This document shows, in pieces, positions 11,770 through 18,722 of a DNA stretch of 46,044 bases. Location of the stretch: the NCBI GenBank assembly GCA_011364905.1, contig RDNZ01000023.1, positions 1-46,044 of the forward strand, in the 5' to 3' direction. The notes beneath the pieces were generated by a model that searched no databases, was not told where the DNA came from, and saw nothing but the letters and a program-made list of their open reading frames with translations. Source of the DNA: Candidatus Thorarchaeota archaeon. Its GTDB lineage: Archaea; Asgardarchaeota; Thorarchaeia; Thorarchaeales; Thorarchaeaceae. Position numbers and translations under genes: made by a program. Numbering within the stretch: position 1 is the first letter of the stretch; every line of letters begins with the position of its first letter.

Positions 11770-13020
11770 CTATGCAACTGCCTGACGAACATGGCTAAGG
11801 ATTGCTCGTCCTGTTGCAAATTTCTGCACCTTTTTCCTACGTGCATCATACACAACCTTCTCAACCGATATATCGTGATTGATTTCATTCAGCGCGTTAT
11901 TAATCTTGGAGAGCATTGATGCTGGCACATATCGTTTGACCCCCAAGACGGATAGAATCTTATTGCCGTAGCTTGTAAGCCAAAGTGGAAGAAGGTCGAC
12001 CTTCCCTGACCTGTCAAATAAGACCACATCCTGCATCTCTGCATCTCTGCGAGAGAGAACAGCAGGCAGAAGAACACTTCCGGGGGTTGTAGATAGCAGG
12101 TCCAAGTTGAAATACAGCGTACTTCCGCCCCGGGTTAGTTGGGCGTCTAATAGATTCACCATCTTGGAATATAGCTGTAGCCGGCCAGTTTCATAACTGC
12201 CGCTCAAGGGAAGAAGTCGGACAATATCATAAATCGGACCATCATAGCATGCAAGCTCTCGCATTGCAAAGGCCTCGAGAAGTACTCCTTGAGCTGCAAA
12301 CTCGGTCGCGGTTGGAAGTTTCTTTGCCAATGCCAAGAGATGTTTTTTCACCAGTTTCCACCCAAACTTAGAAACGAGGTCTTTGTAGGATTTGGGAACA
12401 AAGTCGATTTCCGCGTCCTTGTCATAGAGCCAGTCTGGAACCAAATTAGCCACCCGGTTTGTAAAGAATGCGAAAAGCGAGTCGTTAAGGTTCGGAGGTC
12501 GGTTGCTCATGAAGGAATCAATTACTACTTTTGGCCTGGGGCCTTGATGAGTGAGCTGAATTACTGCTGTCGTCAGGTGCTCTAGTTGATAAAGAGGAGC
12601 AATGTTGATTCTTCGAAATTGATTCTCCTGTAAGTAGAGATACACCAGTTCTTCGCACCCTGCAAGTGGTGTCAAATCGAGCTCTCTGAATCTATTGTGG
12701 GATAGATCAAGATGTTTCAGGTGCTTGCAGCTTTGAAGTGGTGTAAGGTCAACTGTTTCAAGTTTGTTCACTCCAAGACTTAGATACTCAAGGTCCTTGC
12801 AGGACTCCAGAGGAGTAAGGTCTACCTCTGTCAACCAGTTTGAGCTGATATCAATCCTGACAGGTTGGTCTATTTCCTCAACCCACTTCAGATCTGATTT
12901 CCGTTCGAAAAACTCACTGCCATTATCAGCAAAAGTCTTGAAAATAAAGTGATAATTCTTGGCTGGCGCCTTGGCACACCGTACAACGAGCATATACTTG
13001 TCTGACAACTCACCCACCAC
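11770..13020 (-). CDS. Leucine-rich repeat protein
   Basis: About four 23-aa repeats LxxLxLxxNxL/FxxV/LDLTPL, then a helical C-terminal region. Confidence 0.85.
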   Translation of the reverse strand: MVGELSDKYMLVVRCAKAPAKNYHFIFKTFADNGSEFFERKSDLKWVEEIDQPVRIDISSNWLTEVDLTPLESCKDLEYLSLGVNKLETVDLTPLQSCKHLKHLDLSHNRFRELDLTPLAGCEELVYLYLQENQFRRINIAPLYQLEHLTTAVIQLTHQGPRPKVVIDSFMSNRPPNLNDSLFAFFTNRVANLVPDWLYDKDAEIDFVPKSYKDLVSKFGWKLVKKHLLALAKKLPTATEFAAQGVLLEAFAMRELACYDGPIYDIVRLLPLSGSYETGRLQLYSKMVNLLDAQLTRGGSTLYFNLDLLSTTPGSVLLPAVLSRRDAEMQDVVLFDRSGKVDLLPLWLTSYGNKILSVLGVKRYVPASMLSKINNALNEINHDISVEKVVYDARRKKVQKFATGRAILSHVRQAVA

Positions 13021-14291: not shown

Positions 14292-15341
14292 ATGCGGTGG
14301 AGAAAGAGTGGTTCAAAGAAACAACAAGGTCCGGGTTGCGCAGTCTGGGAAATAACACTAGCATGTAATTTGAACTGCATACACTGCGGCTCTGCGGCTG
14401 GGAAGAAACGTCCTGATGAACTCTCTACAAAAGAGGCGTTATTTCTCTGTGAATCTTTGAAAGAGATAGACTGCAAAGGGGTAGCTCTTATGGGTGGAGA
14501 ACCTCTTCTCAGGCCCGATTGGGCGGATATCTCAAGACGAGTTCATGAGTTGGGAATGGAACTCTCCATCATCACAAATGGATGGCTGGGTCAGGATAAG
14601 CGGATAACACAGCAAATCCTTGATCTTTCACCTGAATGTGTCACAGTTAGCCTGGATGGAGCAGACCCACTGGTTCACGATATGATTAGAGGTGTTGATG
14701 GTTCCTTTGACCGAGCGATAAAGGCGCTAAGACACTATGCCTCACTTGGAATTCCTACAACGGCAATCACTACAGTTCACAAGCTGAATCTAAAGGACCT
14801 AGTGAAGATTCGTGATTTGCTTAGGGGCCTGGGAGTGGCTTGGCAGATTCAAATGGCGACTCCCTTTGGAAGACTGGAACGTAAACATGTTCTCAGTCTC
14901 GAGGAGTACTATTCCGTTGCAATGTTCATTGCATCAACAAGAAAACTGTACTCGAAAGAATTGCTGGTAGCTGGAGCTCATGATATGGGGTATTTCTCAA
15001 ATATACTTCCGGATCTTCAAGTGAAAGGATGGGAGGGGTGTCAAGCAGGGATTTCAACTTTGGGAATTCAAAGCAATGGAAACATCCTTGGATGCCTTGC
15101 ACTTGGTGATGACTTCATTGAGGGTAATGTAAAGGAACGACCTCTACAGAAAATCTGGAACGATGAATCGTCCTTTCGGTATTCTCGGCATTACAAGAAA
15201 GAGGATATGAAAGTGCATTGTAGCAGATGTAAATACTGGAAACAGTGTGGCGGAGGTTGTTCGGCCGTTTCATACAGCATGACTGGTGATCTCCATCAGG
15301 ACCCCTATTGCGCCCGGCATATCGAGGAGATGATGAGGTAG
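14292..15341 (+). CDS. Radical SAM/SPASM domain protein (splicease-like peptide maturase candidate)
   Basis: WEITLACNLNCIHCGS (CxxxCxxC), GGEP, SPASM Cys set GCQAG...GC...CxxC-x5-C-x3-C...PYC. Confidence 0.9.
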   Translation: MRWRKSGSKKQQGPGCAVWEITLACNLNCIHCGSAAGKKRPDELSTKEALFLCESLKEIDCKGVALMGGEPLLRPDWADISRRVHELGMELSIITNGWLGQDKRITQQILDLSPECVTVSLDGADPLVHDMIRGVDGSFDRAIKALRHYASLGIPTTAITTVHKLNLKDLVKIRDLLRGLGVAWQIQMATPFGRLERKHVLSLEEYYSVAMFIASTRKLYSKELLVAGAHDMGYFSNILPDLQVKGWEGCQAGISTLGIQSNGNILGCLALGDDFIEGNVKERPLQKIWNDESSFRYSRHYKKEDMKVHCSRCKYWKQCGGGCSAVSYSMTGDLHQDPYCARHIEEMMR

Positions 15342-15498
15342 GAGATGCTGTGAATCAAAAGTTTTTAACAAAATGCTCCTAGGTTGTCATCTGTGGGTGA
15401 AGCTAATGCGGTGGAGTAGTTTTAGTAGCGTACATTATTGGTATATGAAAACGCGAAGTAGCCTACCTGCAAGATTGCGTAATTCTACAGATGGCGTT

Positions 15499-15810
15499 AT
15501 GTTATCAAAGAATTTCACAGACTATCAGATTGACAAATTAGAAAATTTGGGCAAATCCATTGGAATGAAGAGAAGTGACATAATAGCAGCAACCAACCTT
15601 CCAATTGACCATATCAATATGGGTGGGGGGAGAAGAGCCACTCTATTCGGAGTTCTAGTTTGTATCATCGTTTTGGCCTGTGTTACCTTTGTAGTCGCAT
15701 TACTCATGAGCAATCCGCAAATCTTGGGCCCTACACCCACTTACACGTACGCGCCAGGCTCGCGTTATGGTAGTATCAGTCCTAATGATTTCAAGAGTAG
15801 TACGTCTTGA
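15499..15810 (+). CDS. Small single-TM protein with C-terminal YG motif (paralog 1)
   Basis: Clear similarity to the next ORF; start chosen at ATG 15499 (earlier in-frame ATGs exist). Confidence 0.7.
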   Translation: MLSKNFTDYQIDKLENLGKSIGMKRSDIIAATNLPIDHINMGGGRRATLFGVLVCIIVLACVTFVVALLMSNPQILGPTPTYTYAPGSRYGSISPNDFKSSTS

Positions 15811-15933
15811 CTACTCCCAGCAGTTTTATCTGAAAAAAGATACAATATTAATCGGTGAGTGGGTTTGAAGATACTTGACATTCAGCTTTTGTGGTTGAAA
15901 TTGGGGCTTCTCAGACCATATCTGCCCAAACAA

Positions 15934-16251
15934 ATGTTCTCGTACTTCAAACGAACAGTACAGAGACCAAGCCCAACACCGAAACAACTAGGCGAACTCA
16001 CAAAACTTGGAGAATCAATAGGGCTTGCGAGAAACGAGGTCATCGCAGCAATCGATGCCCCCTTGGCGGAGCAAGGATCCTCAGGTAGCGGGCGCAAACC
16101 GATGATGATAACCCTCATACTTGTCGCCACAGCTATTGCAGTTTGGAGTCTCTTCATCTGGTATGTTGTGAGCCCAGAAACATTCCCAATTCCTACATAC
16201 AGGTATGGAACATTATATGGAACAATAAAGCCTCAAGACTTTTCGAGTTGA
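15934..16251 (+). CDS. Small single-TM protein with two C-terminal YG motifs (paralog 2)
   Basis: Shares L-x-x-LG-x-SIG-x-x-R-x-x-x-IAA and PTY..YG.I.P.DF with the previous ORF; start chosen at ATG 15934. Confidence 0.7.
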   Translation: MFSYFKRTVQRPSPTPKQLGELTKLGESIGLARNEVIAAIDAPLAEQGSSGSGRKPMMITLILVATAIAVWSLFIWYVVSPETFPIPTYRYGTLYGTIKPQDFSS

Positions 16252-16285
16252 AGTTCCACATGTTAATTGACTAAGGTGTAGAAAC

Positions 16286-17587
16286 ATGAAACTCAATATT
16301 GGCTGTGGTCTCGTATACAGGAAAGGGTACGTCAATATTGATGCTTACGACAATACTGTAGCAGATAGGAAAATGTCAGCCATGAGTCTTGGTTTTGACA
16401 ACGACACTTTTACTCAAGTTGATTGTATTCATGTACTTGAACATCTGGGAGCTGCAAAGAGCATCTATGCATTGAGTGAGATTTACCGGGTGTTGAAGCC
16501 AAATGGCATCTTTCTTTTGGAAACGCCTGACTTAGTAAACTCGTTCAAGTCCTTTGTCAAAGGAAAAGAAAAAGACAGAAAGTTGCTCATGAATTGGATC
16601 TATGGGCTTGATTCGCCGGGCATGTCGCACAGATATGGATTCCCAAGAGTGCTCATGAAACGTATGTTGGAAGAGACAGGATTCACTGATCTTGAGATTA
16701 AAAACGTCAACCCGAAATCCGTACATCCCTCAATTCGCGTCACATGCAGAAAGCTTGAGTCTGCTGTTTATCAAACAATCAGTGAGTTTCGGAGAAAGCT
16801 TGTTGAAGAAAAGGCTGTGGACCTGGACAATCAGGTAGAGACAATAGAAAAAGAAGGACTCATTCGAGGCTTGATTGAATTGACCCTTGGCGCAGACTCA
16901 ATGCTTGATGATAGCTACCTGACGAAAATGCTTGAATCTTCAGCGGTCGTCGCGCCAAAAGTGGGAGAGTTCTTCCTGAATTGTCTATATAATAACAAGT
17001 TATTATCAAGTACCAGGGTGAATGAGTTTCGAGGGATATTGGAGAAGCTGGATTCGGTAAACTTTGCAAAAGTACTAACTCTACTCTTCTATAAAATGCC
17101 TGTAAACCCAGGATTCCAAGATGAGTCATTTGATACAGTGGTCAAAGTTGCAGGGCAATTGATTAGAAAAGTGATTAGAGGAGAAGCTGAAGCGCTTAGC
17201 AAAATCGAGAATATAGCGGAAAAAACGGATGATGTTGGACACATTGGCTATTTTTCAAAAACAGCGCTCGAGATTCTTTCAAACGAAAAAGTGGCACTTG
17301 GTCTCAAAGCCTTTGGATTGGATCGACTTGATGAATCAGCTAGGCTGTTTCAAGATGCTGTGAAATTGAACCACGATTCGATAATCTCCTTCTGGAACCT
17401 AGCCAGATTAAATGTATTGAAGCGGAATGATGAGAAAATGGCTCAGAATTATGCAGCTGTGTGGAAAATCCTTGAACTCAAGTATCCAAGGCGCCATCAA
17501 ATTTACACAAAGAAGCTGGAGGAGGAACAAAGACTTGCCGCTTTGGGCAAGCATAGTATTTTCTCTGAACCAATATACTCACTATAG
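16286..17587 (+). CDS. Class I SAM-dependent methyltransferase (Methyltransf_11-like) with helical/TPR-like C-terminus
   Basis: KLNIGCG, NID, HVLEHL, EIYRVLKPNG; TPR-like ALGLKAF...A..LFQDAVKLN. Confidence 0.8.
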   Translation: MKLNIGCGLVYRKGYVNIDAYDNTVADRKMSAMSLGFDNDTFTQVDCIHVLEHLGAAKSIYALSEIYRVLKPNGIFLLETPDLVNSFKSFVKGKEKDRKLLMNWIYGLDSPGMSHRYGFPRVLMKRMLEETGFTDLEIKNVNPKSVHPSIRVTCRKLESAVYQTISEFRRKLVEEKAVDLDNQVETIEKEGLIRGLIELTLGADSMLDDSYLTKMLESSAVVAPKVGEFFLNCLYNNKLLSSTRVNEFRGILEKLDSVNFAKVLTLLFYKMPVNPGFQDESFDTVVKVAGQLIRKVIRGEAEALSKIENIAEKTDDVGHIGYFSKTALEILSNEKVALGLKAFGLDRLDESARLFQDAVKLNHDSIISFWNLARLNVLKRNDEKMAQNYAAVWKILELKYPRRHQIYTKKLEEEQRLAALGKHSIFSEPIYSL

Positions 17588-17630
17588 AGAGATAAGAAAC
17601 TTAAATTGCAGAACATCAATCACAGAGGGC

Positions 17631-18722
17631 ATGCCTCATATACACACTGAACTCTGCGATATCGTGGGAATAAAACACCCCATACTTCAAGGCGGGATGG
17701 GCCCATACAAGACAGAAGACTTAGCAATTGCTGTTGCAAATGCTGGGGCACTGGGAATTATCAGTTGCATTGGCATGGCAGCGACGCTTCTCCCTGAGGC
17801 GGCCCCAATTGATGCCCAGAGATTGTTTGGCTCAGATCCTCCAGCGGTAATCCTTCAGAAATCAATTGAATCAGTTACAAAGCAGACTCGTTCTTCAGGA
17901 GGAGTCTTTGGTGTCAATGTGCCTGTTGCTTCTGAGTTTATTCTTGCATCCAAGATGTTCATTGAACAGACCATAGAGTCCTGCAAAGCAGACTCGGATA
18001 CAGAACGTGCATTGAGAGTCGTTGTCACATCGGCAGGGAACCCAAAACCATGGTCAGTTCTTAAAGATGAAGGGTTCATCTGGGTTCATGTGACGCCCTC
18101 TGTCTATCATGCAAAGAAGGCTGAGGCGGCAGGAGCTGATGTGATTGTGGCATCAGGGCATGAGGGAGGAGCACATGTATCCTGGGATCCTGTGCATTCC
18201 ATGGTACTTGTTCCAGCTGTCGCAAAAGCAGTGAAGACCCCAGTTGTTGGAGCAGGAGGATTCTGTGATGGCGCAACATTGGCTGCGGCTTTGTGCATGG
18301 GTGCTGTGGGAGTTCAAATGGGTACTCGTTTCATAGCTACTAAAGAGAGCGATTTTGAGCCAATGTGGAAACAAGCAATCCTGAACAGAGAGGAACGACA
18401 GACCCTGGTTGGTAGAGGTCTCTTCGGGCCAATGAGGTTCCTTCGGAATAAAAGAGCTGAAGAGATTGTTGAACAGACCCTAGAGGACCTCCCCCACTTC
18501 TACCTTGGAGAACCCCTTGACTCAAACGAGAGGATTCTGAAACTCGAACAGACAGGATTCGATGATCTATTGGACAAGAAAGAAAACACAGCATTGATGT
18601 TCGGAGGAGAAGTTGTGGGGAGAATTGGAAACCTTCCTACCACTGCAGAGCTTATAGAACAAATAATAGATGAAGCCTCAGAGATACTTGAGAATGTGCC
18701 GAAACATGTAGTTAAGAAATGA
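17631..18722 (+). CDS. Nitronate monooxygenase / FabK-like FMN oxidoreductase
   Basis: HPILQGGMG, AVANAGALG, GHEGGAH, AGG..DG, GVQMGTRF; start reassigned to ATG 17631. Confidence 0.9.
   Translation: MPHIHTELCDIVGIKHPILQGGMGPYKTEDLAIAVANAGALGIISCIGMAATLLPEAAPIDAQRLFGSDPPAVILQKSIESVTKQTRSSGGVFGVNVPVASEFILASKMFIEQTIESCKADSDTERALRVVVTSAGNPKPWSVLKDEGFIWVHVTPSVYHAKKAEAAGADVIVASGHEGGAHVSWDPVHSMVLVPAVAKAVKTPVVGAGGFCDGATLAAALCMGAVGVQMGTRFIATKESDFEPMWKQAILNREERQTLVGRGLFGPMRFLRNKRAEEIVEQTLEDLPHFYLGEPLDSNERILKLEQTGFDDLLDKKENTALMFGGEVVGRIGNLPTTAELIEQIIDEASEILENVPKHVVKK

Follow-up and report, generated by a model that had tools for sequence, protein, structure and literature searches.

What does a radical S-adenosylmethionine (SAM) enzyme do beside two small membrane-anchored proteins in an Asgard archaeon? 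The question is raised by a 46,044-nucleotide stretch of a Candidatus Thorarchaeota archaeon genome (assembly GCA_011364905.1, contig RDNZ01000023.1; hereafter the window), in which the gene of a radical SAM/SPASM maturase is followed by two genes for small proteins, A1 and A2, and by a methyltransferase gene. A sequence-only reading of the window had described a radical SAM/SPASM open reading frame (ORF) with a set of characteristic motifs and two paralogs downstream on the same strand, all of which are present, and had proposed that the enzyme is a splicease, i.e. a maturase that excises tyramine at X-Tyr-Gly sites to leave alpha-keto-beta-amino acid units. Based on comparisons of the locus with its homologs and on the phylogeny of the enzyme, we propose as the best reading that the system is a new subfamily within the splicease superclade, whose substrates, membrane-anchored or exported proteins, form a new class and which often has a methyltransferase as partner. 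Modification of a conserved tyrosine of the small proteins by the enzyme appears highly probable from these comparisons, while tyramine excision, our best single guess at the reaction, is put forward tentatively and by analogy.

Enzyme and small proteins occur together

The association of enzyme and small proteins extends well beyond the window. Among 301 Asgard genomes, 80 contain a match to the enzyme at E <= 1e-40, and 70 of these hold an ortholog, defined as such a match at no less than 45% identity. A profile built from 40 Asgard small proteins finds matches in 51 of the 301 genomes, 50 of which also have an enzyme ortholog; the lone genome with a small-protein match and without the enzyme is 88% complete. 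Among the matches listed, the small proteins lie on the contig of the enzyme. This pattern is far beyond chance, since the profile reaches E values of 1e-16 to 1e-33 in 50 other Asgard genomes, and the co-occurrence that the sequence-only reading had set as a check holds almost perfectly. Within the genus of the window the spread is patchy, with orthologs in 9 of the 24 other sampled genomes. One to four tandem small-protein copies stand beside the enzyme per locus, the window genome having just two, A1 and A2. The other 20 enzyme-positive genomes belong mostly to two further Asgard families, and at three of five loci inspected there the small neighbours have two or three transmembrane (TM) helices, a similar leader and a shorter, Tyr-centred tail. 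At L052:5644-6030, L058:6082-6585 and L062:4567-6010 of these two families, the enzyme and a methyltransferase adjoin such small proteins, whose tails read Tyr, then Gly/Ser/Asp, Thr/Val and Phe/Tyr, and escape the window-type precursor profile.

The radical SAM, A1, A2 and methyltransferase genes form one four-gene unit at about 14292-17587 (Table 1). These bounds are delimited independently by five congeneric genomes without the radical SAM gene, in which the SCP2 gene abuts a nitronate-monooxygenase-like gene and precisely the four-gene block is missing. The methyltransferase gene had been overlooked earlier, when the unit was taken to consist of the radical SAM gene and the two small genes. 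The small-protein ORFs (15373-15810 and 15859-16251) lie on the strand of the radical SAM gene, and their products are paralogs with 30% identity (BLASTP, E 2e-16). Conservation among congeners extends above the first ATG codons to in-frame GTG codons at 15397 and 15859, so that the genes are tightly spaced, with gaps of about 55, 48 and 34 bp if the small genes start there; the AT-rich gaps of more than 100 bp reported before each of the two thereby shrink to the first two of these values. For the same reason A1 and A2 are probably about 130-137 residues long and not about 100, as had been stated. The A1 start is uncertain, with GTG 15397 favoured by conservation and ATG 15445 and ATG 15499 as alternatives.

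Table 1 Features of the four-gene cassette, in positions of the window
Feature	Position	Strand	Remarks
Radical SAM/SPASM maturase	14292..15341	+	349 aa; Pfam Radical_SAM and SPASM
Proposed substrate protein A1	15397..15810	+	N-terminal conservation; helix-turn-helix-like leader, one TM helix, C-terminal core
A1 core site Arg-Tyr-Gly	15763..15771	+	X = Arg; invariant alignment column Y90
Proposed substrate protein A2, paralog of A1	15859..16251	+	130 aa from GTG 15859; profile match E 7.8e-31
A2 core site Leu-Tyr-Gly	16213..16221	+	X = Leu; holds the conserved Tyr per small-protein alignment
Class I SAM-methyltransferase with all-alpha C-terminal domain	16286..17587	+	Pfam Methyltransf_23 E 1e-9; AlphaFold2 model

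Leader, anchor and core of the small proteins

A1 and A2 have no Pfam or NCBIfam match, lenient thresholds included. The AlphaFold2 (AF2) model computed from the small-protein alignment contains two helices at residues 8-20 and 25-32 (predicted local distance difference test, pLDDT, about 90) and, at 49-71, a TM helix (pLDDT about 95), while the tail has no structure. The TM segment was also weighed as a class III (pilin-type) signal, a possibility rejected because 50-80 residues precede it. In the alignment of Asgard homologs two Tyr, six positions apart, are invariant; nearly invariant are one Gly lying between the two, Asp-Phe at seven and eight residues past the second Tyr, and a leader motif of Leu-Gly, three residues, Gly-Leu, three residues and Glu. 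The window cores read SRYGSISPNDF in A1 and TLYGTIKPQDF in A2. The codons of the three sites named by the sequence-only reading, the two of Table 1 and a further Arg-Tyr-Gly of A2 at 16201-16209, are found exactly where it placed them; the last of these covers a variable residue and the conserved Gly and is not the conserved site.

The small-protein profile was also run against a broader set of 79 loci, all from named genomes. The second Tyr is present in every core found, and in most cores another Tyr lies five or six residues upstream of it; this first Tyr is absent in L105, L108, L109 and L114. Residue X, directly ahead of the core Tyr, is split between paralogs in 8 of 9 genus-level Thorarchaeota loci, with Arg/Lys in one and Leu/Phe in the other, the pattern expected of a P1-like specificity position.

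The precursors differ widely in form among relatives. In Thermoplasmata they are soluble, 55-65 residues long, made up of leader and core and present in three or four tandem copies, and some chains (L083:3537-3866, L086:2248-2631, L114:3572-3886) repeat the core two or three times or contain a pair of leader-core units. In Elusimicrobia precursors the leader is followed by a hydrophobic stretch with a lipobox-like Cys at its end, after which come a long linker and the core. In Syntrophus/Smithella the leader is followed by a signal-peptide-like segment (assigned by eye), a Kunitz_BPTI domain and the core, as seen at L098:3571-3981, L101:3418-3981 and L102:3571-4014 (Pfam E 6e-15, 1e-13 and 1e-4). 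All three fusions have Lys after the second Cys, which we take to be the P1 position in bovine pancreatic trypsin inhibitor (BPTI), and likewise have Lys as X, ahead of the core Tyr. Judged from these segments, the bacterial homologs are evidently exported. With their tail outside the cell, the cytoplasmic radical SAM enzyme would have to act before export or insertion, and the position of the core at the extreme C-terminus would permit this. The earlier concern that the tail may lie across the membrane from the enzyme is correct in that the tail ends outside, which would present no obstacle to a modification made before export.

The enzyme within the splicease superclade

The enzyme consists of the Pfam domains Radical_SAM (E 7e-26) and SPASM (E 5e-9), with CX3CX2C at C25/C29/C32 and seven SPASM cysteines (C250, C268, C310, C313, C319, C323 and C340) invariant in 12 family members. 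By Pfam, there is no recognition element domain of the kind used for peptides that are made by ribosomes and modified post-translationally (RiPPs; RiPP recognition element, RRE) and no N- or C-terminal extension, the radical SAM domain beginning at about residue 20. The two top NCBIfam matches, both splicease-linked and both below their cut-offs, are TIGR03913 (207.6 bits against a cut-off of 591.75) and TIGR04103 (196 against 725), with the AhbD model third (166 against 500); the scores for NirJ (126 vs 515), PqqE (105 vs 381) and MftC (147.5 vs 265) are also under the cut-offs. TIGR03913 and TIGR04103 are likewise the top two families for five of five family members from other phyla. With phmmer the window enzyme scores 182-198 bits to splicease-family references, 155 to AhbD and 81-123 to MftC, NirJ, PqqE and TIGR04053.

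These scores can be gauged against an enzyme of Rheinheimera aquimaris, the organism of RhaX, a splicease used experimentally (PMC11414181, PMC11626197). The Rheinheimera enzyme analysed here is from a strain other than the published one and is treated as the presumed RhaX ortholog; its score is 626 bits to TIGR04103, under the cut-off of 725, and 168 to AhbD. Provided that this orthology is correct, missing the TIGR04103 cut-off does not exclude splicease function, and an AhbD score of about 166 bits is superclade-wide background. In a sample of 20 from the nearest 150 cluster representatives of the window enzyme, none is a true TIGR04103 or TIGR03913 member, the maximum being 294 bits.

A tree of 65 rows was calculated with IQ-TREE using posterior mean site frequencies (PMSF). 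The labelled references were taken from plasmids annotated by the Prokaryotic Genome Annotation Pipeline (PGAP), i.e. a Nostoc TIGR04103 enzyme (853 bits), three TIGR03913 enzymes, MftC, NirJ, PqqE, TIGR04053 and TIGR04133; a Smithellaceae genome supplied a bona fide AhbD (567 bits). A superclade unites the window family with the splicease references and with a large cloud of unnamed sequences (branch length 0.71; approximate likelihood-ratio test with Shimodaira-Hasegawa-like support, SH-aLRT, 99), inside which the window family is a clade of its own with 9 rows (SH-aLRT 97). AhbD/TIGR04053, NirJ, MftC and PqqE are not part of the superclade; the long TIGR04133 row is, with an unsure placement. 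A grouping of the enzyme with AhbD/TIGR04053 is rejected by the approximately unbiased (AU) test (p 0.0011). The sequence-only reading had judged the motifs of the enzyme closer to splicease families than to AhbD, NirJ or PqqE, and the enzyme groups with none of these three, nor with MftC. Eight residues (G33, R40, W77, Q185, Q187, G233, W247 and G267) are common to the window family and the splicease references and rare or absent in the outgroups. Assignment as a heme or cofactor enzyme (AhbC/AhbD, NirJ, PqqE, MftC) was rejected on the scores under the cut-offs, the position relative to the superclade and the neighbourhood comparison of loci, which finds no cofactor-pathway genes conserved near the enzyme.

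Two further enzymes were encountered in the course of these searches. The same genome encodes a second, distant radical SAM/SPASM protein on the minus strand (G000:C38:3954-4862, locus L004), a 497-residue open frame with 23% identity (E 1e-20). Among annotated plasmid-borne proteins, the one closest to the window enzyme is a radical SAM protein without a name from Agathobacter rectalis (L152:2983-4137; 37% identity, 233 bits), which adjoins a major facilitator superfamily (MFS) transporter and groups with the unnamed cloud near the splicease references.

Relation to known maturase systems

Spliceotides, the products of spliceases, block serine and cysteine proteases via their ketoamide (PMC11626197), and spliceotide clusters have been detected in archaeal genomes according to a survey cited in that paper. 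A full-text literature search for the TIGR and IPR accessions and for Asgard together with RiPP or SPASM found nothing on the present system, the splicease-type survey of Scott et al. 2022 (Chem 8:2659) lying outside its coverage.

A close parallel is offered by the binary systems of Rheinheimera (RhaX/RhaA, RcsX, RasX; PMC11626197, PMC11414181), in which a radical SAM/SPASM enzyme without RRE protein is paired with a precursor, the precursor leader helix engages the enzyme, the target Tyr is close to the C-terminus and the products are protease inhibitors. We propose an analogous leader for A1 and A2. Binary splicease systems normally lack a PlpY/RRE partner (PMC11414181), and so the missing partner, which the sequence-only reading had listed as a caveat and which is indeed not seen, is normal for such a system; neighbourhood comparison likewise finds no small conserved partner besides precursors and methyltransferase. 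The precursor encoded at L238:2197-2388, beside the Rheinheimera enzyme, has ALYGSVIDPHRF and four more residues at its end, with two Cys and the LYG site as in PMC11626197, where splicing at LYG is reported. The window cores resemble this tail: past Tyr-Gly, both have a small residue, Ile/Val, Pro and a terminal Phe. In contrast to the window, the Rheinheimera enzyme has the much higher TIGR04103 score given above (626 against 196 bits), its precursor is a short soluble peptide without TM helix, and its locus has no methyltransferase and, judged by eye, contains ORFs for an ABC exporter and an ATP-grasp-like protein beside the precursor; in the window family no protease and no exporter is conserved beside the cassette by neighbourhood comparison. 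Moreover, Gly after Tyr is described as the normal target in the Rheinheimera systems, whereas the window family is variable there.

Type I spliceotide systems (PlpX/PlpY/PlpA, PcpXYA; TIGR04103, 'nif11-class peptide radical SAM maturase 3'; Nostoc sp. C057 reference, L144) share with the window the superclade, the eight clade-specific residues and the presence of several homologous precursor genes beside the enzyme. Cores in the register of the window motif, e.g. SYGVIRPTDIA, occur at five Nostoc loci out of 80 loci in the TIGR04103 clade, and the same-register core motif is matched 6 times against 0.07 expected in shuffled ORFs. However, type I systems need a PlpY partner and Nif11/NHLP leaders, neither of which the window has, and the window enzyme is 70-120 residues shorter than theirs. 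A degenerate DNA pattern of the published PlpA splice tag gave a single chance match in the genome contigs. The TIGR03913 'GDL motif peptide-associated' maturases of Azospirillum and Burkholderia (L143, L145, L155), for which splicing is putative, correspond to the best NCBIfam match of the window enzyme. Their DUF1843 partners have a Tyr, usually as Pro-Tyr-Gly, at a fixed distance ahead of Gly-Asp-Leu, and one partner copy has Met after Tyr, so that Gly is not strict there either. Unlike A1 and A2, these partners are soluble helical proteins with the Tyr near the N-terminus, and their loci contain DUF1842 as a third gene, no methyltransferase and enzymes of about 490-520 residues; no DUF1843 or DUF1842 match is found among the window neighbours by Pfam.

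MftC (mycofactocin) and PqqE (pyrroloquinoline quinone) are alike in SPASM architecture and in modifying a Tyr near the C-terminus of a ribosomal precursor. Both differ from the window enzyme in lying outside the superclade, at the low end of the phmmer scores, in needing RRE chaperones (MftB, PqqD) and in yielding cofactor precursors and not proteins.

Proposed mechanism and alternatives

We propose that the system would operate as follows. The cytoplasmic radical SAM/SPASM enzyme would recognise the helix-turn-helix-like leader of A1 and A2 without a separate RRE protein, as in binary splicease systems, and, while the tail is still on the cytoplasmic side of the membrane, would act on the conserved Tyr of its C-terminal core, for which the consensus is Tyr, any residue, a small residue, Ile/Val, three residues, Asp/Glu and Phe. 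The likeliest chemistry would be excision of a tyramine equivalent, with the methyltransferase contributing an accessory modification. The product may be a membrane-anchored, outward-facing, protease-inhibitor-like tail that takes its specificity from residue X.

It is conceivable, as a more speculative step, that Asgard archaea and other anaerobes in this way put alpha-keto-beta-amino acid warheads into the tails of membrane-anchored or exported proteins, which might then act as surface-tethered, covalent-reversible protease inhibitors. Specificity would be given by the residue before Tyr (Arg/Lys in one paralog, Leu/Phe in the other), and the Kunitz fusions would be two-headed inhibitors. 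Since the warhead would sit a few residues outside the TM helix, membrane-proximal or intramembrane serine proteases such as rhomboids are possible targets; rhomboids are reportedly inhibited by peptidyl ketoamides (PMC8694341). If the enzyme splices, backbone beta-amino-acid formation would extend from bacterial peptides to archaeal membrane proteins, surface-displayed protease inhibition would provide a natural function for a modification whose native products are still called elusive (PMC9811515), and compact, helper-free spliceases of 349 residues that tolerate non-Gly sites would be useful in protein engineering.

Several points weigh against tyramine excision and the inhibitor function proposed from it. 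A set of 88 cores was collected with a regular expression that fixes several positions and includes a few off-frame matches, which leaves just its free positions informative. Directly after Tyr, these cores have G in 48, S in 14, A in 13, Y in 6, T in 5, N in 1 and F in 1, position +2 is Ser/Thr in 73 and position +3 is Ile/Val in 82, whereas the spliceases characterised so far are described as acting at X-Tyr-Gly. The expectation that homologs keep Tyr-Gly survives for the Tyr, found in every core, and holds in part for the Gly, found in about 55%; X-Tyr-Gly as such, which both window proteins have, does not appear to be the conserved unit. In the Pfam and NCBIfam scans A1 and A2 have no leader homology to Nif11/NHLP and no DUF1843. 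The identity of the enzyme to the TIGR03913 references is just about 30-32%, and an exclusive clade of the window family with the four TIGR04103/TIGR03913 references is rejected (AU p 0.00045). With this rejection and both curated cut-offs failed, the enzyme was discarded as a member of TIGR04103 (PlpX-type) or TIGR03913; the likeness to splicease families noted from the sequence alone is sustained by the top two curated matches and does not extend to membership. A large uncharacterised cloud separates the family from the references, and the chemistry of radical SAM/SPASM enzymes changes over such distances. Furthermore, the protease-inhibitor interpretation would depend on a domain fusion in three related loci, and the role of the methyltransferase is not accounted for by splicing.

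A serious, if less probable, alternative is that the enzyme performs another Tyr-directed reaction, such as C-C or C-O crosslinking, beta-carbon functionalisation or epimerisation, which would produce a rigidified or otherwise altered tail and no ketoamide. A crosslink could take the form of a three-residue cyclophane, joining the Tyr ring to residue +2, or of a link to the upstream Tyr. The variable +1 position followed by the Ser/Thr and Ile/Val preferences at +2 and +3 fits an aromatic-X-X crosslink as well as it fits a recognition motif, the upstream Tyr is available in most cores, the window family is a clade apart from the reference spliceases, and MftC and PqqE are established as further Tyr-targeting SPASM enzymes. 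Compared with triceptide systems, Tyr-X-Ser/Thr is conserved in the cores, while nothing is found N-terminal to the radical SAM domain by Pfam. An RRE domain is typical of cyclophane-forming radical SAM enzymes, and the window enzyme has none; no crosslinking family ranks near the top of its NCBIfam matches, no three-residue cyclophane (triceptide) family is among the top 25, and the upstream Tyr is missing in the four loci named above. Nor does another Tyr chemistry predict the likeness to cores of splicease neighbours or the pattern of residue X. Should a different Tyr reaction be the true one, it would represent new radical SAM chemistry, in a family that roughly one in four of the Asgard genomes sampled possesses.

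An improbable reading is that the tail is mainly a recognition or sorting element and that the methyltransferase makes the decisive modification (e.g. O- or N-methylation), the radical SAM enzyme being secondary or acting elsewhere in the protein. It draws on the adjacency of the methyltransferase and on its confidently modelled fold. The methyltransferase domain (about residues 1-157) is fused to a C-terminal all-alpha domain, as determined by Pfam and AF2, and the confident AF2 model (pLDDT 93.3) places 13 helices after a class I Rossmann domain; Gly and Asp positions of the methyltransferase are invariant. Sequence searches give no match in the PDB, and Foldseek gives generic class I methyltransferases only. 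A homolog adjoins the radical SAM gene in 20 of 20 fetched Asgard loci and also in Elusimicrobia and Thermoplasmata loci, and in an Elusimicrobia locus its start overlaps the radical SAM stop. On the other hand, the Kunitz-type loci L098, L101 and L102 and the Thermoplasmata loci L073, L083, L105 and L114, all of which have precursors with the same core, contain no methyltransferase within 4 kb of the enzyme. Hence the methyltransferase is a frequent, non-obligatory accessory, and the radical SAM-precursor pair is the constant core of the system.

That the small proteins are not substrates at all but anchors or regulators, with the enzyme making a cofactor or modifying another target, is very improbable: although their modification has been deduced by comparison and the AhbD-type model is the third-best NCBIfam match, grouping with AhbD is rejected, the Rheinheimera splicease-family enzyme scores alike against AhbD, cofactor-pathway genes are not conserved nearby, and tandem, multi-copy or multi-core leader-plus-core precursors, including the soluble Thermoplasmata peptides, are a signature of RiPP substrates.

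Neighbouring genes and further observations

In a comparison of 20 Asgard loci with long flanks, the remaining neighbours of the cassette (PHP, SCP2, nitronate-monooxygenase-like and iron-containing alcohol dehydrogenase-like, Fe-ADH-like, genes) are syntenic within the genus only; the names of the last two were assigned by eye. In an Aenigmarchaeota locus (L041:4384-4978 and 2115-2747), two ORFs upstream of an orthologous enzyme encode a leader and two TM helices, together with a loop in which one Tyr stands (Ala-Tyr-Pro), without Asp-Phe; the locus is without an adjacent methyltransferase homolog and has a rhomboid protease gene 2 kb upstream. Upstream of the cassette in the window, a 416-residue ORF on the minus strand (11770-13020), syntenic in some congeners, has leucine-rich-repeat-like units in its N-terminal half. 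Downstream, the longest nitronate-monooxygenase-like ORF (17427-18722, plus strand) shares 160 bases with the end of the methyltransferase gene; its start is probably located beyond 17587, as the congener alignments start well inside this ORF.

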